64,000 nucleotides of DNA from Candidatus Poribacteria bacterium. GTDB taxonomy: Bacteria; Poribacteria; WGA-4E; PCPOR2b. Position numbers and translations under genes: made by a program. The notes under the pieces are model-generated. The model had not been told where the DNA came from. It ran no database searches and saw only the letters and a program-made list of their open reading frames with translations. The stretch covers positions 2,592,001 to 2,656,000 of the forward strand of contig OZ242351.1 of the NCBI GenBank assembly GCA_965208675.1. Reading direction: 5' to 3'. Positions 1,580-54,836 of the stretch are shown here, one piece after another. Position 1 is the stretch's first letter, and every line of letters starts with the position of its first letter.

Positions 1580-3460
1580 GTGTTTGGTTTATCAACTAGC
1601 AACCTTCGTTATTTGCACCTTAAATGCGTATCTCCTAACCGTTTCACAAAGAAAGGGAAATACAACTTTATGCAAATGCGGTCTATCACGGCGAATCCGT
1701 CTCAGGTTATGGTCGAGCAACTTGCGGCACTGGATGTGAAATATCTGTTTTATAATACAGGCTCGCGCGAGGCGCGCTTTTTCGACGCACTGCATGATCA
1801 CCCGGATATACACGGCATTCTGGCGCTCCATGAAGGCAGCGTCGCAGCACAAGCTGGCGGTTATACGCAGGCAAATCTCGACCCGGCGGTTATGGTGGTC
1901 CATCTTGCCGCGGGGCTTGCCCAATGTTTAGGGCAGCTAATCAACATTTGGTCCGGCGGTTTACCTGTCGTGGTCATCAGCTTCGCAGGAGACACCGGCA
2001 GTTTCGCGGATCGGATTGAACTCGATCTCAGTCACAGTTTCGGGCCGACATCCATCGCTGCACCCTTTACAAAGCAAAATTGGACCGTGATCGACCCCGA
2101 AGGGCTGCCCCAAGCCATTCACCGTGCGTTACTGGTCGCCAAAACGCCGCCGGTGGGCCCCGTCCATCTCGCTGTTTATGATCGGGCGCTTGGGCACGAG
2201 CAGATAACCGCGAACATTATTGAAGGTAGCATCCCCGACCTCCACGCGGGTTATCCGTCGGATAGTGATGTCGAGAAGATTGAATCTGCTTTGCACGACG
2301 CGAAGTCTCCCCTGTTTTATATTGGGGATGGTGTCTGGAAAAGTGGCGCGGAAGACCAAATTATCGCGGTCGCTGAACACTTCGGTGTTCCCTGTGTCAG
2401 CAGCTACGTCCCTGTCGGCACTTGGGAAAGAAGCATCGCAACGAAACATCCACTCAATTGCGGTCGGTTGGATCAGGTGGTCGATATCCTTCAACCCGAC
2501 CTGATCGTTTGTATCGGTATCCATCATCGCGGCGTCGGAAGGTCCGGGGATTTCGATGTATTTTCTAAAGCGCGGCAGGTTATCGCCATTGGATCGGATA
2601 TTGAGCATATCAAAAATATCCCGTATCTGTCTACGGCGATTTTGGCGGACGAGCGCCGCTCCTTTGAAAGGTTGGCAAAATTGGCGTCGAGCCATTCCAC
2701 CCCGAGCCGCTTTGACGAGCGGCGGGCTTGGGTAATGGAACAAGCCGCCGCGCTGCACGTCCAGCGAATAAACGAAGTGTGGAAGACTGAGACGCGGCCT
2801 AATGAGATTCGGCCATGGATAGTGGCAGAGACGCTCGACACTGCCCTAGAACGTCGCGGCGGCGGGTTGGTGATGCTCGAACAATATGCGGTCCCGTGGG
2901 ACACCGTCGGCGGATATACGCTTTCTTCAGACACCGTAGATGCAACAGACACCGGAAGGAACAGATACATCCGCGCTGCCGGCGGGTCTGAGGGCTACGG
3001 CGTTGGAGGAGCCGTGGGATTGAAGCTCGCCGCCCCTGAAATGCCGGTTGTCGGGTTGGTCGGCGACGGTTCGCTGTTGTACGCAGAGTCGGGTTTGTGG
3101 ACCGCGGCACACCATAGCATACCGGTCCTCTACATTATTCCCAACAACCAGTCTTACGGCGCGGTTGCGTCCTCCTTCGCAAGCGTGGATGGGGTGATGA
3201 AGGAGACCGGGGAATATGCCGGAGTCGTTCTGGACGGCATTGACCCCGTAAAACTCGCCGAAGGCGTGGGTGTGGAGGGGTTGCACGTCCAAGCGGAGCC
3301 TCGCCTGGCTGCGGCGATTGAACACGGATTGAACGTGGTTGAAAGGGAAAACCGCCCATTTCTTTTGAATATTCGCTTGCCGCTAGGACTACCGGAGGGC
3401 GGACGCCCCGCTGCGCAATTCCGACATGCGGACGCTAAAACTCAGAATCGTTCGGCTTAG
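1580..3460 (+). CDS. Thiamine pyrophosphate-dependent enzyme (benzoylformate decarboxylase/acetolactate synthase-like); real start probably ~1670
   Basis: N-terminal LALHEGSVAAQAGGY with the conserved Glu; TPP motif GDGS...NNQSYG. Confidence 0.9.
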   Translation: MFGLSTSNLRYLHLKCVSPNRFTKKGKYNFMQMRSITANPSQVMVEQLAALDVKYLFYNTGSREARFFDALHDHPDIHGILALHEGSVAAQAGGYTQANLDPAVMVVHLAAGLAQCLGQLINIWSGGLPVVVISFAGDTGSFADRIELDLSHSFGPTSIAAPFTKQNWTVIDPEGLPQAIHRALLVAKTPPVGPVHLAVYDRALGHEQITANIIEGSIPDLHAGYPSDSDVEKIESALHDAKSPLFYIGDGVWKSGAEDQIIAVAEHFGVPCVSSYVPVGTWERSIATKHPLNCGRLDQVVDILQPDLIVCIGIHHRGVGRSGDFDVFSKARQVIAIGSDIEHIKNIPYLSTAILADERRSFERLAKLASSHSTPSRFDERRAWVMEQAAALHVQRINEVWKTETRPNEIRPWIVAETLDTALERRGGGLVMLEQYAVPWDTVGGYTLSSDTVDATDTGRNRYIRAAGGSEGYGVGGAVGLKLAAPEMPVVGLVGDGSLLYAESGLWTAAHHSIPVLYIIPNNQSYGAVASSFASVDGVMKETGEYAGVVLDGIDPVKLAEGVGVEGLHVQAEPRLAAAIEHGLNVVERENRPFLLNIRLPLGLPEGGRPAAQFRHADAKTQNRSA

Positions 3461-8015: not shown

Positions 8016-8081
8016 TACTACTGGCCGCCAATTACAACTGATTACCGACGAATTAACCTGCCGTAGGACTGAAACATCAAA

Positions 8082-8119
8082 TAGCCGTTGCGGTAGATGC
8101 TTGCGTGACGGCTTTTTTG
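8082..8119 (+). terminator. Intrinsic terminator-like hairpin
   Basis: agccgttgcg...cgtgacggct followed by a T-run. Confidence 0.55.
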
Positions 8120-8541
8120 TTTGTGAGGAGATGAATGTTATGTGCCATGAATCTGTAGTACGACGGAATACGATCGCCCGCTTGTTCTTTTCCTGCAAAG
8201 GTCGAATCTCGCGTCGCACTTATTGGGCACTAATTGGTATTAGTATGGTTCCGGGTATTTTAAAGATAGTGTTTTTAGTCACTGGCGACATTGTGACGAG
8301 AGCATTCTTCCCGGGTGTTTTCTATTTAGCATTACCATTTGGGTGCTGGTGTCTTCAATGCGCAATTCAAATTCCAGCCTTTATCAAACGGCTGCACGAT
8401 ATGAACAGGAATGGATGGTGGTGCATACTGTGTTTTTTCGATGTTCTGGCGGTCATTGCCTGGATTGTTTTAGGTGTATCTAATGGCACTCAAGGCAAAA
8501 ACCGGTACGGCGATATAACGGAACGTCATCGGTTATTTTAG
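8101..8541 (+). CDS. DUF805 (YhaH-like) membrane protein; start probably 8131 or 8140
   Basis: KGRISRRTYW, KRLHDMNRNGWW and GTQGKNRYG motifs. Confidence 0.85.
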   Translation: MRDGFFVCEEMNVMCHESVVRRNTIARLFFSCKGRISRRTYWALIGISMVPGILKIVFLVTGDIVTRAFFPGVFYLALPFGCWCLQCAIQIPAFIKRLHDMNRNGWWCILCFFDVLAVIAWIVLGVSNGTQGKNRYGDITERHRLF

Positions 8542-8692
8542 ATTCATGCCCCCTAATTTCAATCCGCCCTTGTTGCTAAGGCGATAGTCGCCCTTGTTAT
8601 GTACATTATACCTTAATGCAGGACACATACAACTAAAAGTTACAAATCTTAACTTGCTAGTATGGCGAAAGTTGGATCAAGGAGGCATTACA

Positions 8693-45785: not shown

Positions 45786-45980
45786 CATAACAAAGGGGAG
45801 GCAGATTGTCTTTCTCTGATCCGGTTGGTGCAAGACATTGACGCTTTCAATTATCCTTCCCGCGGCAGGAGGCGACATCACGGTGCCGTGATGCCTGCCG
45901 CTCCCCTTCGCCGGGGAATGGAAGGACTTTTCAAACAGGATCTTAAATTAATTTCTATATCTAAACGCGAGGTAGAATTG

Positions 45981-48220
45981 ATGATTGAAGTAGCGCAGTT
46001 TAAGGCAAGGCTCATAGAATTCGACGCACTACGTGAAAATGACGAGATAGAAGAAAAGACCGTTGAACATATCGCTCCACAATACAATGATCGGTGGCCT
46101 CCCCATTTACACCCATCTGTCCGAAATGCCCTTAACAGGACCGGCATCGATCGGCTCTATAAACATCAGGCTAAGGCGATTGATTTGTCTCTCAGGGGTA
46201 CAGATATAGTTTTGGAATCGCCCACAGCGAGCGGAAAGACCTTGGCTTTTACCGCGCCGATGCTTGATTCGTTGATTCGCGACAGGAGTTCACATGCACT
46301 AATGATTTACCCTATGAAGGCGTTGGCTTACGATCAGCGCGAGCAAATTGAGCAACTTTGCAGTTTGCTCTCCATCGAATCCTTTCCTTACGATGGGGAC
46401 ACCGAACAGGAACATAGGCAGCTATTGCGAGATTCTCCACCACAGATATTATTTACCAATCCCGAATATTTGAATATGTCATTTCTAGGTTGGCGGGATA
46501 AGTGGAAAGACTTTCTGCACAAGTTGCGGTATGTAGTGATTGACGAAATTCATGAATATCACGGTTTTTTTGGTGGCAATATGGCGCTATTGCTCCGGCG
46601 CTTTTTTCTGCATCTGAAGCGCATTGGCACGAACCCTCGAGTGTTTTTGTCGACCGCGACCTGCGCGAATGCCGCCGAACATGCTAAGAATCTCACCGGA
46701 CGCGATGTCATTGCCGTATCTGCTCGGGATGTCTTGCGTCCTAAGCGACATTATTTTTTCGTGAATCCTTCCATTCCCGATCACAGATACAGGGATATTC
46801 TTCGCCTTAGGGTTGTAAATGCGGCACTAGCAGTTCTCGCCCAAGGGTTGCGCGTGCTTGTTTTTTGCCCAACCAAGAGATTCCTTGAGCAAGCCTACAG
46901 CGATTGCGCGCGCTTAGCTGAGGAAAATGGATTCGCTCGTGACAGAATTGTGCCTTTTCATGCAGATCTGATGTCCGAAGAACGGCAGAGAATACAGCAG
47001 GGCATAAGAGACGGTGAAATTGACGTTGTATTCACGACGAACGCCCTAGAATTAGGTCTGGACATCGGTGGTTTAGACGGCGTGATTTTGGCGGGGTTTC
47101 CGCCTAGAATTACGTCCGCTTGGCAGCAAATTGGACGCGCTGGACGAAAATGGGACAAGGACGCTTTTGTGCTGTTCTACGCCATGAATGATCCGATTGA
47201 CCACTTCTACGTGGGCAACTTGCACGCCTTTCTGACGAAGCCTTTTGATGAATTAGTGGTTGACACTGGCAACGAAGGTCTGATTCAAAATCATCTCAAT
47301 TCGCTAGTCAACGAATCGGGCAAAGACCTAAACGAATCGGATAAGACTATACTGGGCGACCCTTTTTTCAAGCGGCGAAAAACTTCACTGGCATGGTACC
47401 AAAGGGTTTCAAGCCACAGCAAATACTAAAAATGCGTGGGGGATTTGACAAACCGGTCGAGTTAAGATTTCGGAATGAGGTTTTGGGTCAAATTTCGGAA
47501 GTGCGTCGGTTCCGCGAAGCCTATATTGGTGCTATCTTCACATTCTTCGGCCAGCAATACCGCGTACATTCGCATTTGGCAGGTGCCATTGAACTAGAGA
47601 GGGCGGAACTTAATCACAGAACTGACCCAAAATTTTACACGGTACTCTATCAAAAGGAAGTTTTCGATGGGTTTGGTTATGGTGACTTTGAAATAATCTA
47701 CGGAACGCTTGACTTAATTATGAATTTCACAGGTTACAGTGAGGTTAACGAGCACACTGGCGAAGCAGTTGGTCAATTTGGTAATGGAGGATCAGCATAC
47801 TCCAAAGCCAACCTACACGGTTTCTGGATTAATTTCCCGCCCAGTGAAACCACTTCTGGCGGAATTGGCGCCTTAGAACACATGATTCGTGTGGGCGCTA
47901 TGTTTGTCATTCCGGCAGATCCATTTGACACTAGTACCTACTCAAGAGGCTCTGAAGAACCTGCTACTTTTTACTATGAAAACTATCCCACCGGAATTGG
48001 CATAGCCAAAAAACTGTTTGAAGTGTGGTCCAGCGCCTTGAAAAAAGGCATTGAGATTGCGGAAGACTGTAATTGCCGATTAGGGTGTCCCAATTGCATT
48101 CAACCAGCAAAATCATATAAAATAAGCAATACCGAGATTGACAAGGGACGCGGGGTTGAATTGGCGGAGACCCTTTTTGCAGCAACAGAAAAGGGGGAAG
48201 ATCGAAGATTCCAAACGTAG
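45981..48220 (+). pseudogene. DEAH-box helicase with C-terminal DUF1998 Zn domain (MrfA/Hrq1-like), split by a -1 frameshift at ~47363
   Basis: SPTASGKT, DEIH, TAT and QQIGRAGR in the first ORF; HGFW, YENYPTGIG and CNC..GCPNC in the second; overlap at a T6 run. Confidence 0.85.
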
Positions 48221-48343
48221 AACGTGTCCACCGGTGACAAGACGGAAAGACAAAGCCCTCTTAAAACACGTAAGACCATGTCGAATAACCAATGCGCAGT
48301 TTTTGTAGGGTGGGTTGAACGGCGTTAACGAACCAACGCTTGT

Positions 48344-48892
48344 ATGCCGTTTGCACTACGAGTTTTTTTTGCGGTCGCTAGCAGTATCGGTATTTGGCTT
48401 TACGACACGGCGACCCGTCAAGAAGTTGCCTTGCTCACAGGGCATTCGAGCCTGGTCGAAAGCGTAGCGTATAGTCCGTATGGCCAGACACTCGCCAGCG
48501 GGAGTTGGGACGGCACCGTGTTGGTGTGGGAAGTTGCGTCTGCAATCGGAATTGGGGTGGAACCGTCGGGAAGTCTCTTAACTACGTTGGGAAACATCAA
48601 ACGGACAGCGCTGCTGCAAAATTATCCGAACCCGTTTAACCCCGAAACCTGGATACCGTATCAGTTGGCAAAGGATGCACTTGTAACCTTGACCATCTAT
48701 GACCAGAGCGGTCATATCGTCCGCACGCTCGACATTGGACGCCAACTACCGGGAGTTTACCGAGACAAAGCACGCGCAGCGTATTGGGATGGCCGCAACC
48801 AAAACGGAGAACCTGTCACAAGCGGCATATATTACTATCAACTCGGTGCGAGCGATTACATTGCATTACGGCGGATGGTAATTGTCAAGTAA
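48344..48892 (+). pseudogene. Truncated WD40 protein retaining a FlgD-Ig/T9SS-like C-terminal domain
   Basis: Begins mid-repeat (AVASSIGIWLYD) just after a REP; one WD unit, then LLQNYPNPFNPETWIPYQL...WDGRN...MVIVK. Confidence 0.7.
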
Positions 48893-49067
48893 CGAAAGTA
48901 TGGCAGGTAATTGCACCATTGGCTTCAAAAACGTTGATAAAACTCTCGGTTTGACCAATTGAATGACAGGTTAGGTGAACTGCGGTCGGATATTGCGTAA
49001 TTGGATTAAGATTACAAGTTCGGAAAGAAGCATTCCAATAACAGTTCGTTAGAATAGAGGAGATACC

Positions 49068-50231
49068 ATGATTTGTTACAGCACAATCCGTGCAGCCGTC
49101 ACAAGCGTAGTTGTATTTGCCCTGATTACGACCACAATGGGTTGCAGCGGGGAGGAAGATTCCCGTCAAAAAGAGCAAAAAAATTTAATGGCAGACGTTC
49201 GTGGGGGACAACCGGTTTACATCAGAGACCGCCAACTCCTCTCGCTAGTAAGGCAAGCGGTAGGCACAGGGGCGGAGTTCGTAACCGATAAGCAGATGGC
49301 GATGGTTCAAGAGATAATCGCAGCGCCCCATTTTACTCCTGAAGGCAACGTAAATCTATTACACCCCATCCGCGATTTAGAGGGCTTGGAGTTTGCGACA
49401 GGTCTCACACACCTAGACCTATCGGGGCACCATTTGATTGACGACATCACGCCGAACGATTGGGCACATATCACGCTGTTTAACTTTGACAACTATAACT
49501 ACTCGCCGATTGACACGCTTGCCACGATTGACATAGAAATCACATACGCAATGAACCATGTGCACCTAGTGCAAATCCCAGCCAACATTAGCGATATTGA
49601 TGACCTCACGCCGTTGGCGGGCTTAAAAAATCTAAAACACCTATCCCTAACCGTACAGCACGCTTCTGAAGGAATCAAGCCGTTGGCGGGCTTGTCCAGC
49701 CTAGAAACACTACGCCTATCGGGCAGCCGTGATATTGATGATTTCACGCCGTTGGCGGGCTTAAAAAATCTGAAACACCTATACCTAGACGACTGTCGTA
49801 TTCGGGATTGGGATGAAAATGCAATCGCGCCGTTGGCGGGTTTAACCAATTTAGAAACCCTGCATCTAAACCACAATACTATTTATGACATCACGCCGTT
49901 GGCAGGATTAACCAAACTGAGATACCTAGACCTAAGCCAGTGTGGGTTACAAGACATCACGCCGTTGGCGGGATTGACCAACCTAGAATACCTAGATGTA
50001 CGCAGCGATCGGATTGATGATCTCATGCCGTTGGCGGGCTTAACAAATCTAAGACACTTATACCTAGGTGGTGGAAACTCAAACAGAAGTCGTATTGATG
50101 ACCTCACGCCGTTAGCAAGATTGACCAACTTAGAAAAACTATCCCTATACATTAAGGATACTGTAGACGCTTTGTCACTCTGTGCGCTTAAGACGACAGC
50201 TATTTCCGGTGTAGAACTCGACTGTAAATGA
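49068..50231 (+). CDS. Internalin-like leucine-rich repeat lipoprotein
   Basis: Lipobox-like TMGC; repeated IDDLTPLAGLTNL..L.L units. Confidence 0.92.
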   Translation: MICYSTIRAAVTSVVVFALITTTMGCSGEEDSRQKEQKNLMADVRGGQPVYIRDRQLLSLVRQAVGTGAEFVTDKQMAMVQEIIAAPHFTPEGNVNLLHPIRDLEGLEFATGLTHLDLSGHHLIDDITPNDWAHITLFNFDNYNYSPIDTLATIDIEITYAMNHVHLVQIPANISDIDDLTPLAGLKNLKHLSLTVQHASEGIKPLAGLSSLETLRLSGSRDIDDFTPLAGLKNLKHLYLDDCRIRDWDENAIAPLAGLTNLETLHLNHNTIYDITPLAGLTKLRYLDLSQCGLQDITPLAGLTNLEYLDVRSDRIDDLMPLAGLTNLRHLYLGGGNSNRSRIDDLTPLARLTNLEKLSLYIKDTVDALSLCALKTTAISGVELDCK

Positions 50232-50567
50232 TGAAAGGCAGCCGTTTAGCCTTCGATTGGAACTTACAGGCCGCGTGTCCATGCGGGCATCGCCCCATTT
50301 TTGTTTGTCGGCGAGAAGGGAAGGGTTTACGTTCTTACGATTCAGAGTTGGTGGAATGTTTGGACCCCGAATAAATATTTAAGCCCTAGGAAGATTCCTA
50401 CCGAAGGGCGCAAACAGTAGATAATTCGCCGCAGGGCAATTTAGTGGAGGATTATCCGAGTTTTTAACAGGCAGGGTACCTAACGGCATGCGAACCGCCG
50501 TTTTTTACTTGACACATAAATCCAAGTTATGATACCCTTTAGCAAATTGCAGCGAAAGGCAAAGCTA

Positions 50568-50669
50568 ATGATATTTATGACGTTCCTCCTCCATTCCGAT
50601 ACGGCAACACACAACTGGCATTGGTGGCATTCAAACTGGAGTGGGAGGAGTATGCCTTTGCTGAAGTAG
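50568..50669 (+). CDS. His/Trp-rich attenuator leader peptide (33 aa, not in ORF track)
   Basis: MIFMTFLLHSDTATHNWHWWHSNWSGRSMPLLK*, directly upstream of a terminator and hisI-trpE-trpG. Confidence 0.8.
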   Translation: MIFMTFLLHSDTATHNWHWWHSNWSGRSMPLLK

Positions 50670-50693
50670 ATTTCGCATTCATTTGATAGTTTT

Positions 50694-50732
50694 AAGCCGT
50701 AGGCATACACCACGTTGTCTACGGCTTTTTTT
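50694..50732 (+). terminator. Attenuator terminator
   Basis: aagccgtaggca-loop-tgtctacggctt followed by a T-run; the 5' arm (aggcatac) is also complementary to gtatgcct at 50650-57. Confidence 0.85.
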
Positions 50733-50759
50733 ATGCCAACTGTTAGGAGGAAAATCACG

Positions 50760-51143
50760 ATGCAAATGCTCGACGAACTCAAATTCGATTCAAACGGACT
50801 AATCCCGGCAATCATACAAGATTACGAGAACAACGACGTACTGATGATGGGTTACATGAACCGCGAAGCGGTGCAGCGAACGCTTGAATCAGGGCGCGTC
50901 ACGTTCTGGAGCCGCTCCCGCCAGAAATACTGGGTAAAGGGGGAGACTTCAGGGCACACCCAAGATGTGCGCTCGCTCGCTTTCGATTGCGATGCAGATA
51001 CGCTTCTCATCAAGGTCGTGCAGAAAGGCGGGGCATGCCACGAAGGGTATCGCTCGTGTTTTTTCCGGGAAGTCTCCCCCAACGGCAATTCGGCACGCAT
51101 CGTTGGTACAAAAGTTTTTGACCCGGGCGCAGTTTATTCGTAA
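50760..51143 (+). CDS. hisI: Phosphoribosyl-AMP cyclohydrolase
   Basis: FWSRSR, KGETSG, DCDAD and [10 protein letters not shown]; AGGAGG RBS places the start at 50760. Confidence 0.95.
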
Positions 51144-51221
51144 CCGTGTGGTTGCGGTCTGATGACCGCAACCAATGCCGTCATTTGACGGGGCGCCCAC
51201 AGTTAGCAAGGAGACTTCTCA

Positions 51222-52706
51222 ATGTATCATCCCACTTCGGAAGATTTTCGGAAAAAAGCGCAACTCGGCAATTTGATTCCCGTTTACAAATCCATATTGG
51301 CGGACATGGAGACCCCGGTATCCGCATTTTACAAGATTGGCGGCGATGAGTACGCCTTTCTTCTGGAAAGCGTCGAAGGCGGCGAAAATCTCGCCCGGTA
51401 CTCCTTCCTCGGCGCGAATCCATCCATCCTGTTTCAGAGTAAGGGGGATCAGGTTAAAATCACAGAAATGCGAACCGGTAAAATCGTCGCGTGTGAATCA
51501 AGGGACGGGCTTACTCAGCTTGAAGCACTGATGAATCGCTACCAGCCGGTGCAGGTCGAAGGACTGCCCCATTTCCACGGCGGGGTTGTGGGCTACCTCA
51601 GTTATGACATCGTGCGGTTAGTCGAAGAATTACCCGATTGCACCGAGGATGACCGGGATTTACCCGATTGCTATTTCATGACCGCCGATACGCTATTGGT
51701 CTTCGACCATGTGAACCACCGGATTAAGGTCATCGCCAACGCGCATATTGATGGCGATATTGACGCAGCGTATGCAGATGCAATAAATCGAATTGAAGTT
51801 TTGATTGCGAAACTCAAGCGTCCGCTTCGCATGAATCCCGGCAAGAAAACGCCAGAGGAAAACACCCAAACGCAGATTACGTCGAATTTCACGAAAGCAG
51901 GCTACGAATCTGTCGTCCTTCGCGCAAAGGAGTACGTCGCTGCGGGGGACATCATTCAAGTCGTTCCGTCACAACGGATTAGCCGCCCAATTTCCGTCGA
52001 TGCCTTTGAAATCTATCGTGCGCTCCGCACCGTCAATCCCTCGCCCTATATGTACTATCTCAAACTCGCCGGCCTCCAGATCGTTGGGGCTTCGCCGGAG
52101 ATGATGGTGCGTGTAGAGAACGGACGCGCAGAGACCCGCCCAATCGCCGGAACGAGACCGCGCGGACGTTCCCCCGCGGAAGACGCTGCACTCGCTGAAG
52201 AGTTGCTCGCCGATCCAAAGGAACGGGCGGAACATGTGATGCTCGTTGATCTAGGGCGAAACGACCTCGGCCGTGTCTGCGAATACCACACGGTTCGTGT
52301 GAGCGAGATGATGGTAATCGAGCGCTATTCGCATGTCATGCACATCGCCTCGCACGTCGAAGGGCAACTGCGCGAGGGACAGACCGCTTTTGATGTCATT
52401 CGCGCCTGTCTCCCCGCCGGAACGCTGTCGGGCGCACCGAAGATTCGGGCGATGGAGATTATTGAGGAACTCGAGCCGACGCGGCGGGGACCTTACGGTG
52501 GCGCGGTCGGTTACTTCAGTTTCTCCGGCAGCGCAGACACGGCGATTACAATTCGTACCCTCGTCGTCGTGGACGGTGTTGCCTACATCCAGGCTGGCGC
52601 CGGCATCGTTGCGGACTCTGTACCCGAATTCGAATTCGAGGAAACGCTGAACAAGGCGCAGGCTGGATTGAGAGCCATTGAATTTGCGGAGGCGGGATTG
52701 GAATAA
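51222..52706 (+). CDS. trpE: Anthranilate synthase component I
   Basis: LLESVEGG, NPSPYMY, PIAGTRPRG, EHVMLVDLGRND and GAPKIRAM motifs. Confidence 0.95.
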   Translation: MYHPTSEDFRKKAQLGNLIPVYKSILADMETPVSAFYKIGGDEYAFLLESVEGGENLARYSFLGANPSILFQSKGDQVKITEMRTGKIVACESRDGLTQLEALMNRYQPVQVEGLPHFHGGVVGYLSYDIVRLVEELPDCTEDDRDLPDCYFMTADTLLVFDHVNHRIKVIANAHIDGDIDAAYADAINRIEVLIAKLKRPLRMNPGKKTPEENTQTQITSNFTKAGYESVVLRAKEYVAAGDIIQVVPSQRISRPISVDAFEIYRALRTVNPSPYMYYLKLAGLQIVGASPEMMVRVENGRAETRPIAGTRPRGRSPAEDAALAEELLADPKERAEHVMLVDLGRNDLGRVCEYHTVRVSEMMVIERYSHVMHIASHVEGQLREGQTAFDVIRACLPAGTLSGAPKIRAMEIIEELEPTRRGPYGGAVGYFSFSGSADTAITIRTLVVVDGVAYIQAGAGIVADSVPEFEFEETLNKAQAGLRAIEFAEAGLE

Positions 52707-52769
52707 GCGTTTTTTAAATCAGAAAAAAGATGTGAGAAAGTACAGACATACTTAATTAAGGAAAAAACT

Positions 52770-53333
52770 ATGGTACTCATGATTGACAACTACGACTCAT
52801 TCACTTACAACCTCGTCCAATATCTCGGTGAACTGGGCGCGAATCTTGTTGTCCACCGCAACGACAAAATCACAATTGAACAGGTTGAAGACCTCGCACC
52901 TGAGAAGATTGTAATTTCCCCCGGCCCCTGCACGCCGCGTGAGGCAGGCATCTCCTGCGAGTTGATTCGTCGCTTTGCCGGCCGTTTGCCGCTGCTCGGC
53001 GTCTGCTTGGGGCACCAGTGCATCGGCGAAGCCTTCGGCGGCGATGTTGTCCGGGCAGAGCGGCTGATGCACGGGAAGACATCTATGATTCACCACGACG
53101 GCGAGGAAATTTTCGACGAACTGGAAAACCCGTTTGAGGCGACGCGCTACCATTCGCTCATCGTGAAAAAGGAGACGCTGCCAGACTGTCTTAAACTCAC
53201 GGCATGGACAGATCAAGACGAAATTATGGGAATCCGGCACAAGGAACATTCTATCTGGGGTGTGCAATTTCATCCGGAATCAATTCTGACACACGCCGGT
53301 AAACCGCTATTGCAAAATTTCTTGCAAATTTAA
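52770..53333 (+). CDS. trpG: Anthranilate synthase component II (glutamine amidotransferase; TrpG/PabA)
   Basis: [21 protein letters not shown] and QFHPES motifs. Confidence 0.92.
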
Positions 53334-53432
53334 CATGAAGCCTCTGAATGTTTCTGGATTTATCACCGTTTTTTTGGTATAGTATCATATACCTTTGTTA
53401 CCTAATCTTCCATTCAGTGACGGATTATACAG

Positions 53433-54836
53433 ATGCCGGACCTTAGCAACATTGATGAACACCTCGTTCAGAAATTATGGAATGATCGACGCTTTTTTGA
53501 CTTTGAGTTGAAGGCGACCGACGGACGTACTTTGCAAGTGCTGAAAACCGGGCAGTGGAATCATAACGAGGGACCCGACTTCGCTGGAGCCGAAATTCTA
53601 GTCAATGGGAAGTTGTTAACGGGTGATATTGAGATTCACGTTTCTTCATCCAATTGGTACGATCACAAGCACCATCTCGACTCAAAATATAACCGCGCCG
53701 TACTGCATGTAGTTTTTTGGGATGACGATATCAATCTGCGTACTCGGACTCAAAACGGTAATCGGATTCCGACGTTAGAACTGTCTCACCGGCTCGACAC
53801 ACCTTTGGTGGAACTAATCGACGAATACAAGAATCCGAAAGCGAATCGGCTGGAATGCCGAATAACAGGCAGAAGGCTGAAGATTGAACCGCTCAAGTCG
53901 GTTTTCGATCAACTCGGACAAGAGCGGCTCATTGCACATAAAGAGGCGATGCAAGCGCAGCGCGTCACGGTCGATTTTGAGCAGTTGCTCTACAGGGGAA
54001 TCATGGACGCGCTGGGGTACAAATTAAACCGCGAATCCTTTGGGGAATTGGCGTATCGAGTGCCCATCTCGCAATTGATGGGAAAGTCGAATGAGGAGAT
54101 TCAAGCTATACTGCTCGGGGTTGCGGGCTTGCTACCTTCGCAATGCGATCTGCTCTCGCCCTGCGAAGCTAATGAACCGTTTATTTCTCAGTTAGAAACG
54201 CTGTGGGCTGCTTCTGCGCAATACGAGAATTCCAATCGAATGTCGGGGCATGTATGGCGGTTCGGAAACACGCGGCCGCCGAACTTCCCCACTCGCCGCA
54301 TCGCTGCGATGGCTACGCTGATTAGTTCCCGAACGGATAGCTTGTTGGCGGAGTTCGTTTCCCACATCGAAGCCGCAGCAACGGCAAACAAAAAGGGTAT
54401 GCAACGAATACGCCGTAAGTTGCTCGAGTTATTGATGCTCCCCGCCGCCGGTTACTGGGCAAACCACTCTCGTTTTGGAAAAGGAATTGCAAAAAAGGGA
54501 ACAGTATTTATAGGAGAAGCTCGCGCTTCTAAAATCATCATTGATAAATTATTGCCGCTCGCGCTTGTATGGGCGGAAGAGTCGCAGAGTTCCAAATTGT
54601 CTGACGCGGTTCAAAAACTCTACGACCATCATCCAAAGATACAGAATGACCCTATCGCTGATAAGATTGCCGCCCGAATCTTCACCGAACAGCAGCCAAT
54701 TCAGAGCATCTCTCCCTCCGCAAAAAAGCAACAGGGCGCAATCTATCTCGACAAAAACTTCTGTGAAAGCCAACTCTGCGAACTCTGTCCAATCCTCAAC
54801 AGCGGCGCGGTGGACGAAGACGCCGCCAATCCTTAA
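53433..54836 (+). CDS. DUF2851 family protein
   Basis: N..EGPDF, GDIEIH, W..H.HH.D..YN, RPPNFPTRRIA and a C-terminal C....C..CP. Confidence 0.85.
   Translation: MPDLSNIDEHLVQKLWNDRRFFDFELKATDGRTLQVLKTGQWNHNEGPDFAGAEILVNGKLLTGDIEIHVSSSNWYDHKHHLDSKYNRAVLHVVFWDDDINLRTRTQNGNRIPTLELSHRLDTPLVELIDEYKNPKANRLECRITGRRLKIEPLKSVFDQLGQERLIAHKEAMQAQRVTVDFEQLLYRGIMDALGYKLNRESFGELAYRVPISQLMGKSNEEIQAILLGVAGLLPSQCDLLSPCEANEPFISQLETLWAASAQYENSNRMSGHVWRFGNTRPPNFPTRRIAAMATLISSRTDSLLAEFVSHIEAAATANKKGMQRIRRKLLELLMLPAAGYWANHSRFGKGIAKKGTVFIGEARASKIIIDKLLPLALVWAEESQSSKLSDAVQKLYDHHPKIQNDPIADKIAARIFTEQQPIQSISPSAKKQQGAIYLDKNFCESQLCELCPILNSGAVDEDAANP

Follow-up and report, generated by a model that had tools for sequence, protein, structure and literature searches.

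A probable histidine- and tryptophan-responsive transcription attenuator before a hisI-trpE-trpG operon of Poribacteria

Attenuators are the standard example of gene control that reads the pace of translation, and textbooks link each of them to a single pathway. The locus described here raises the question of whether one attenuator may answer to two. In a 64,000-nt stretch of a Candidatus Poribacteria genome, which we refer to as the window, a short ORF in which His and Trp codons are both abundant stands before an operon that joins hisI to trpE and trpG. We analyzed this leader in its own genome and compared it with the corresponding loci of the order and phylum.

The leader and its operon in the window

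The initial annotation had proposed an unannotated 33-aa ORF with 4 His and 4 Trp residues, 7 of them within HNWHWWHSNW, and this ORF was read directly from the window as a peptide of the sequence MIFMTFLLHSDTATHNWHWWHSNWSGRSMPLLK (Table 1). The mixed hisI-trpE-trpG operon that it had assigned to the leader was likewise recovered, with hisI and trpE scoring above their profile cut-offs and trpG located 3' of them. Within this 4.89-Mb single-contig genome hisI is the sole PRA-CH match and trpE the sole chorismate-binding match. The genes trpBA, hisG, hisB, hisA and hisF are scattered elsewhere in the genome; no leader was seen upstream of trpBA or hisG, and hisA and hisF are preceded by short intergenic gaps. 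Phosphoribosyl-ATP diphosphatase is represented by a HisE domain (residues 236-304) of a 309-aa ORF (G000:C1:4125763-4126692, corresponding to L027:4763-5692), which also has a weak HisG-like N-terminal match (23 bits), and a normal long-form hisG is present elsewhere.

Downstream of trpG (53334-54836) a DUF2851 gene comes next; the search for a terminator between the two was negative, and a weak promoter-like site is present at 53360-53388. At 45825-50231 the window has, in this order, ORFs with DEAD/Helicase_C, with an MrfA Zn-binding domain, with WD40 plus FlgD-Ig/CHU_C and with leucine-rich repeats.

Table 1. Positions of the leader elements and operon genes in the window.
Feature	Position	Strand	Basis or detail
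-35 hexamer TTGACA of the leader promoter	50510-50515	+	read from sequence; putative function
Extended -10, TG-n-TACCCT	50530-50538	+	17 nt after the -35; read from sequence; putative function
SD-like purine-rich GAAAGG of the leader ORF	50554-50559	+	read from sequence
Leader ORF, 33 codons	50568-50669	+	ATG at 50568, TAG at 50667-50669; translation MIFMTFLLHSDTATHNWHWWHSNWSGRSMPLLK
Hairpin P1 enclosing the regulatory codons	50586-50598 with 50637-50650	+	MFE fold
Regulatory codon cluster H15-N-W-H-W-W-H-S-N-W24	50610-50639	+	read from sequence
Antiterminator 5' strand (GUAUGCCU, then GCU)	50650-50662	+	inside leader codons 28-32
Intrinsic terminator	50694-50732	+	stem 50694-50708 / 50714-50727, U7 50726-50732
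Antiterminator 3' strand, the same as the terminator 5' arm	50695-50708	+	folding
Shine-Dalgarno AGGAGG of hisI	50745-50750	+	read from sequence
hisI, phosphoribosyl-AMP cyclohydrolase	50760-51143	+	NF000768, 177 bits vs cut-off 126
trpE, anthranilate synthase component I	51222-52706	+	TIGR00564, 598 bits vs 518
trpG, anthranilate/aminodeoxychorismate synthase component II	52770-53333	+	family search

The whole set of elements, from the putative promoter and the SD through the ORF and the alternative helices to the U7 terminator, fits into the 230 nt before hisI, and the 27 nt between the U-run and the hisI start hold just the hisI SD. The putative promoter before the leader is sigma-70-like. 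Of 21 leader copies of relatives, 17 have TTGACA no more than 330 nt before the terminator, and the -10 region at the same place reads TGnTATGCT or TGnTACCCT. An automated promoter call in the window, TTTACT-18-TATGAT, overlaps the -35/extended -10 pair.

Folding produced a hairpin followed by U7 exactly where a terminator had been claimed, with an energy of -18.9 kcal/mol and a z-score of -5.9 that none of 200 shuffled sequences equaled; a simple terminator scan around the leader returned none, having missed the hairpin that folding shows. The claimed antiterminator, gtatgcct (50650-57) with aggcatac (50701-08), pairs once the 3' arm of the terminator is omitted (-17.7 kcal/mol, z -2.3, with 3 of 200 shuffles as good). 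A further helix of the initial annotation, ctcctccattcc (50586-97) with ggagtgggaggag (50638-50), held up in part: this hairpin, P1, does form in the MFE fold and is not conserved across the order. Its energy of -22.7 kcal/mol (z -1.2) is matched by 24 of 200 shuffles and is thus by itself no better than chance, and its conservation across the order was rejected, as 49.6% of alignment cells are paired vs 32-44% in slid controls. In the window's own sequence P1 adjoins the antiterminator without overlapping it; it is specific to the window's own genus and possibly a pause hairpin or an anti-antiterminator.

MFE prediction on nascent RNA pairs at least 4 of the 7 nt of the antiterminator 5' strand with upstream letters in 43 of 45 leaders, and the predicted upstream partner differs between families: in f1 it is the SD region, in f2 it is codons 5-7. 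MFE folds with a masked ribosome gave no information, since in a thermodynamic fold a helix can still close around the masked nucleotides. An Rfam scan of 49500-51500 at E up to 10 returned neither Trp_leader (RF00513) nor His_leader (RF00514) nor any other leader family, and its three matches were all at chance level (osmY, snoZ40 and CRISPR-DR35). A look-up of sequencing runs for 50300-53400 listed no RNA run; the four runs that contain this DNA are from a single study and of unrecorded type.

The composition of the leader is not unique, as a genome-wide scan for a short ATG ORF with at least 3 Trp per 7 residues and a T6 run nearby gave 5 sites. Two of these were checked, and both were dropped as lying within long ORFs. 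The terminator and core motifs of the leader are present as a single copy in the genome, without paralogous copies. It is by its position and conservation that the element is more than chance.

Four of the features by which the attenuator class is recognized are present: a translatable short ORF with SD-like letters and a start codon between a putative promoter and the first structural gene, a codon cluster for amino acids of the downstream pathways (His and Trp before hisI-trpE-trpG; Trp with 0-1 His in genomes where hisI is absent from the operon), an intrinsic terminator of hairpin and U-run before the first gene, and an antiterminator that excludes the terminator and has its 5' strand near the end of the ORF.

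Conservation of the leader and of gene order

Our comparison set comprised 79 hisI-upstream loci of the window's order, which include a few duplicates of one place. In 71 of the 79 the leader has His codons interspersed with Trp codons (core H-H/N-W-H-W-W), so that the check put forward in the initial annotation, retention of both codon types in orthologous leaders, came out in favor of its claim. Sixty-six of these loci contain a short ORF matching the core pattern W-[H/Y/R]-[W/R]-[W/R], and in five others this leader is present but its first Trp is replaced by Arg (L093, L097), its core contains a small insertion (L022, L085) or its U-run was missed by the pattern (L099). Two further loci have a short F-Q-H-F-W or F-H-Y-W-C form and one is cut off (L101). 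In some lineages with hisI-trpE the leader is decayed (L038, with 1 Trp and 0 His) or absent (L046 and, in genus g15, L062, L065 and L066). Where relatives' loci hold hisI, trpE follows it in 38 of 38.

The 63 distinct ORFs picked by the pattern contain 2-6 His (median 4) and 2-4 Trp (median 3). Between the first and second Trp, 60 of them have His (CAT in 56, CAC in 4), 2 have Tyr and 1 has Arg, with the proviso that counts at core positions 0 to +3 depend on the pattern used for picking. At the two positions before the first Trp, His is found in 35 and 46 of the 63, and N, D, G, Y, R, S, I or A in the rest. More generally, His at core positions -2, -1 and +4 is often replaced by N, D, G or R, and the window's own genus has N or G at position -1. 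His codons of the leaders are biased toward CAT (187 CAT to 49 CAC), as compared with 8053 to 8566 in 1106 long ORFs of this genome.

Several loci depart from the common layout. In L011 (G023, ~1900-2430, minus strand) the leader, the terminator and the first hisI codons are tandemly duplicated, and in the second leader copy the hisI start (MEILK...) is fused to the leader core. L022 (G011) and L085 have insertions of ~30-50 nt between the first Trp and the Trp pair (HHWLVPHCEDPENREWH... and EHWQCEAKTNSTHTGRIWWH), which keep the frame and break up the regulatory cluster. Loci of genus g14 (L072-L078, L085, L093, L097) have an extra small hairpin with a T-run (of the GAAAATCGTCGTTTTTCATTT type) between the leader stop codon and the main terminator. 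L009, L016, L036 and L099 have insertions of ~100-200 nt between promoter and leader or between terminator and hisI, some of them inverted-repeat in character.

We examined both helices in an alignment, A1, of 45 leaders from four families of the order. For the terminator, 96.5% of cells are standard pairs vs 26-51% when the partner strand is slid, and 3 pairs are changed on both sides (33 cells). For the antiterminator, 99.4% of cells are paired, one position occurs as three pair types (G-U, G-C and A-U) and another has a double change. Column 195 is common to both helices, and its change from G to U is accompanied by C to A in column 217 of the terminator and by C to G in column 102 of the antiterminator; covariation with both partners is what two alternative structures predict. 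The compensatory changes are mostly inherited from one split (f1/f3 vs f2) and so represent few events. In other families of the phylum both helices are kept with other letters, e.g. GUGUGUCC/GGACACAC. The geometry is also constant, as 39 of 45 leaders have the core beginning 48 nt from the ATG and all 45 have the antiterminator 5' strand beginning 76-84 nt from it. We take this covariation as backing for the alternative terminator/antiterminator switch that the initial annotation had proposed.

Across the phylum (176 genomes, 159 of them in the window's order) the His content of the leader could be compared between operons with and without hisI. Leaders before hisI-trpE have 1-6 His. Ten genomes outside the order have hisI-trpE, and their leaders contain both codon types, with 4, 4, 2, 1, 4, 3, 3, 3, 3 and 2 His; G166 qualifies as one of them through an overlap of its two contigs in the hisI-trpE interval. 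This is contrasted by five genomes in which leader and terminator stand directly before trpE-trpG without hisI between them and the leader has 0-1 His, although by their taxonomy labels these five fall into two clades (genus g10; families f10/f11) and so amount to about two independent contrasts. Three are from g10 in the same order: G027 (leader MQTRWPRSKVISCVKRWWYTSWGRSVPV, 0 His and 4 Trp), G030 (...SRWRHIDRSGSVPV, 1 His and 2 Trp) and G052 (...RRWCHISWGRSVPV, 1 His and 2 Trp). G052 is counted with a caveat, as its frame is homologous to the g10 leaders and lacks an in-frame ATG, being 1 nt out of frame with an upstream ATG. The other two belong to another class, G160 of f10 (...NIRFWRWWWRSV...) and G161 of f11 (...ARNWCWWWRNE...), each with 0 His and 4 Trp.

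The leaders of the phylum have a common skeleton, xxWxWWWR, which takes the form HHWHWWWR where hisI is in the operon and RFWRWWWR or RNWCWWWR where it is not, such that the hisI-less leaders of the other class have R, F, N or C exactly at the His positions of the others. The contrast is less clean elsewhere: of the three g10 leaders, two still contain one His and also have fewer Trp, and in family f4 it is weak, with g12 leaders having 1-3 His and 1 Trp. Four of the five genomes with a hisI-less operon have a distant hisI match (40-44% identity) elsewhere with no leader, and in G160, which is 88% complete, a PRA-CH match was not found. G159 (f10), outside the five, has a distant hisI (38%) elsewhere and a trpE that follows a coding gene with no leader. 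For G163 and G164 a leader was not seen in the available sequence. At L058-L060, L178 and L179 a trp operon without hisI was observed, with the distant hisI type (38-44% identity) located elsewhere and having no visible leader.

Outside Poribacteria, hisI is followed by trpE in 16 of 59 loci (L103-L154; Planctomycetia, Omnitrophota and other MAGs), and no His/Trp leader was seen within 1500 nt upstream of these hisI-trpE loci. As read from ORF ends without a family search, 9 of the 16 have a frame with a HisF-like end before hisI, and others have one with a HisA-like end. In view of these ends, the hisI-trpE junction may predate Poribacteria, as the remainder of a his-trp cluster.

A dual-sensing attenuator and its alternatives

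Based on these comparisons, we propose that the element is a ribosome-mediated transcription attenuator of hisI-trpE-trpG that would act as an OR gate, relieved by a low level of either charged tRNA-Trp or charged tRNA-His, and we assign this reading a probability of about 0.72. Transcription would start ~20-25 nt before the leader ATG, and a ribosome would translate the 33 codons while RNA polymerase advances. A ribosome stalled in the H-N-W-H-W-W-H-S-N-W cluster would have its front edge ~10 nt short of 50650, leaving GUAUGCCU..GCU free to pair with the terminator 5' arm, so that the terminator would be blocked and the three genes transcribed. With both tRNAs charged, the ribosome would reach the stop codon (50667) and cover the antiterminator 5' strand, the hairpin and U7 would form, and transcription would end near 50730. 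In this scheme we infer the promoter, the coupling of ribosome and polymerase, the stalls, and readthrough on limitation of His as well as of Trp.

The claim that one leader integrates His and Trp signals gains support from the comparison, namely from the 71 same-order loci, the ten out-of-order genomes and the 0-1 His of the hisI-less leaders. The conservation of the codons and their link to hisI suggest that the dual codon content is selected. The accompanying premise of the initial annotation, that trpL senses one amino acid, was too strict, as attenuation in E. coli trpL is reported to be relieved also when the ribosome stalls on Arg codon 12 (PMC1183508). A stall at any codon of the control region has this effect, and for this physical reason interleaved His codons should be sensed. 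A caution comes from Streptomyces ilvB, in which predicted regulatory codons were reported to be without effect when mutated (PMC1262725). It also counts against dual sensing that control of hisI alone, with hisG, hisB, hisA and hisF elsewhere and without visible leaders, is an odd way of regulating histidine synthesis.

The most serious alternative is an ordinary tryptophan attenuator, analogous to trpL, with hisI as a passenger and with the His codons kept for RNA pairing, for properties of the peptide or for slow decoding that sets a basal level. We consider this unlikely, though several observations fit it. The Trp codons are the invariant part of the leader, with no change at the TGG positions in A1 (the leader ATG is likewise invariant there, or nearly so), and at the His positions that flank them N, D, G, Y or R may stand instead. 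One His is kept in two of the three hisI-less g10 leaders, and hisI is the only his gene under this leader. Pairing could in principle hold the central codons, as in f1 and f3 the antiterminator strand contains AUGCC or GUGCC, a possible partner of the core GGCAU. However, TGG-CAT-TGG-TGG (WHWW) is kept in family f2 despite different terminator and antiterminator letters and a different possible pairing partner, which speaks against a single RNA pairing as the reason for keeping the His codon, and the central His between the Trp codons changes synonymously from CAT to CAC in 4 distinct leaders. A median of 4 His per leader also exceeds what the proteome His frequency of 2.3% would give, the hisI-less leaders of the other class have other residues at just the His positions, and a ribosome on an interleaved His codon sits where a Trp-stalled one does.

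Two readings do without leader translation as the sensor, and both are far less probable still. That the element is no attenuator at all, and instead encodes a small functional peptide or a small RNA with its own terminator while hisI-trpE-trpG is separately promoted, is very improbable. Trans-acting attenuator RNAs and leader peptides are known in Sinorhizobium, and the C-terminal VPLL(R/K) of the leader is conserved in f1 and f3. Yet this C-terminus coincides with the antiterminator strand and changes along with the terminator, the stretch between U-run and hisI start leaves room for just the hisI SD in its 27 nt, and the element is always directly before hisI or trpE; a trans role would in any case be compatible with attenuation. 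That a protein- or tRNA-operated RNA switch (TRAP-like or T-box-like) overlaps a chance ORF is hardly credible. Such switches are used by Firmicutes trp operons, whereas here the Rfam scan at E up to 10 gave its three chance-level matches alone, and ORF, start and frame are conserved across the phylum while synonymous and neighboring letters change.

We therefore retain the dual-sensing attenuator as the preferred reading. With somewhat less confidence, we also favor the view that leader codon content co-evolves with the gene content of the chimeric operon, giving an OR gate where hisI joins trpEG and a Trp-only leader where hisI has left.

Relation to known attenuators and meaning

Leaders of ilvGMEDA, ilvBN and thr contain regulatory codons for several amino acids, all from one branched pathway. 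The three operons are named in PMC1183508. The Poribacteria leader resembles them in having regulatory codons for more than one amino acid, and differs in joining two separate pathways solely through the gene order of a chimeric operon, with His codons that come and go with hisI.

The likeness to E. coli and Salmonella trpL lies in a short leader ORF with clustered Trp codons directly before trpE and in an antiterminator and intrinsic terminator that share a strand; by analogy, a stall in the control region would lead to readthrough. Unlike trpL, the Poribacteria leader has 33 codons rather than 14, has interleaved His codons and hisI as its first gene, controls just trpE and trpG of the pathway, has an upstream partner of the antiterminator strand that varies by lineage, and is without any sequence or covariance-model match. 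With hisL it has in common the His codons in a leader before a his gene and the terminator/antiterminator switch. In contrast to hisL, in which seven His codons stand in a row and the entire his operon is controlled (PMC1183508), it has 2-6 His mixed with Trp, no Rfam match, and hisI as the only his gene controlled. In layout the locus resembles that of Sinorhizobium meliloti, in which an attenuator is described for the first enzyme, trpE(G), alone, with the other trp genes elsewhere and without leaders (PMC6614838); the Poribacteria genome has the same arrangement of an attenuated first enzyme and scattered trp genes, the difference being that the S. meliloti leader has Trp codons alone and no his gene.

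Sequence comparison thus makes it most likely that the Poribacteria leader is a ribosome-mediated attenuator of the classical kind, in which the regulatory codons form a new combination that mirrors a chimeric operon. A full-text literature search, with older comparative surveys in subscription journals beyond its reach, returned no description of a His+Trp leader or of a hisI-trpE attenuator.

To our knowledge no genetics exist for Poribacteria, and the leader would provide a first handle on amino-acid regulation in these bacteria. One terminator/antiterminator scaffold bears codons for two unrelated amino acids, and across an uncultivated phylum of sponge symbionts its His codons occur where hisI does and not where hisI is absent. 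If the proposal is true, the specificity of an attenuator would be freely programmable by point mutations (CAU to CGU or UGU), and the locus would point to a selected coupling of the His and Trp pathways, e.g. through their shared draw on PRPP. The leader would then be a compact two-input switch amenable to simple codon swaps, and the phylum would offer a natural series for asking how fast the specificity of a sensor tracks the rearrangement of its operon.
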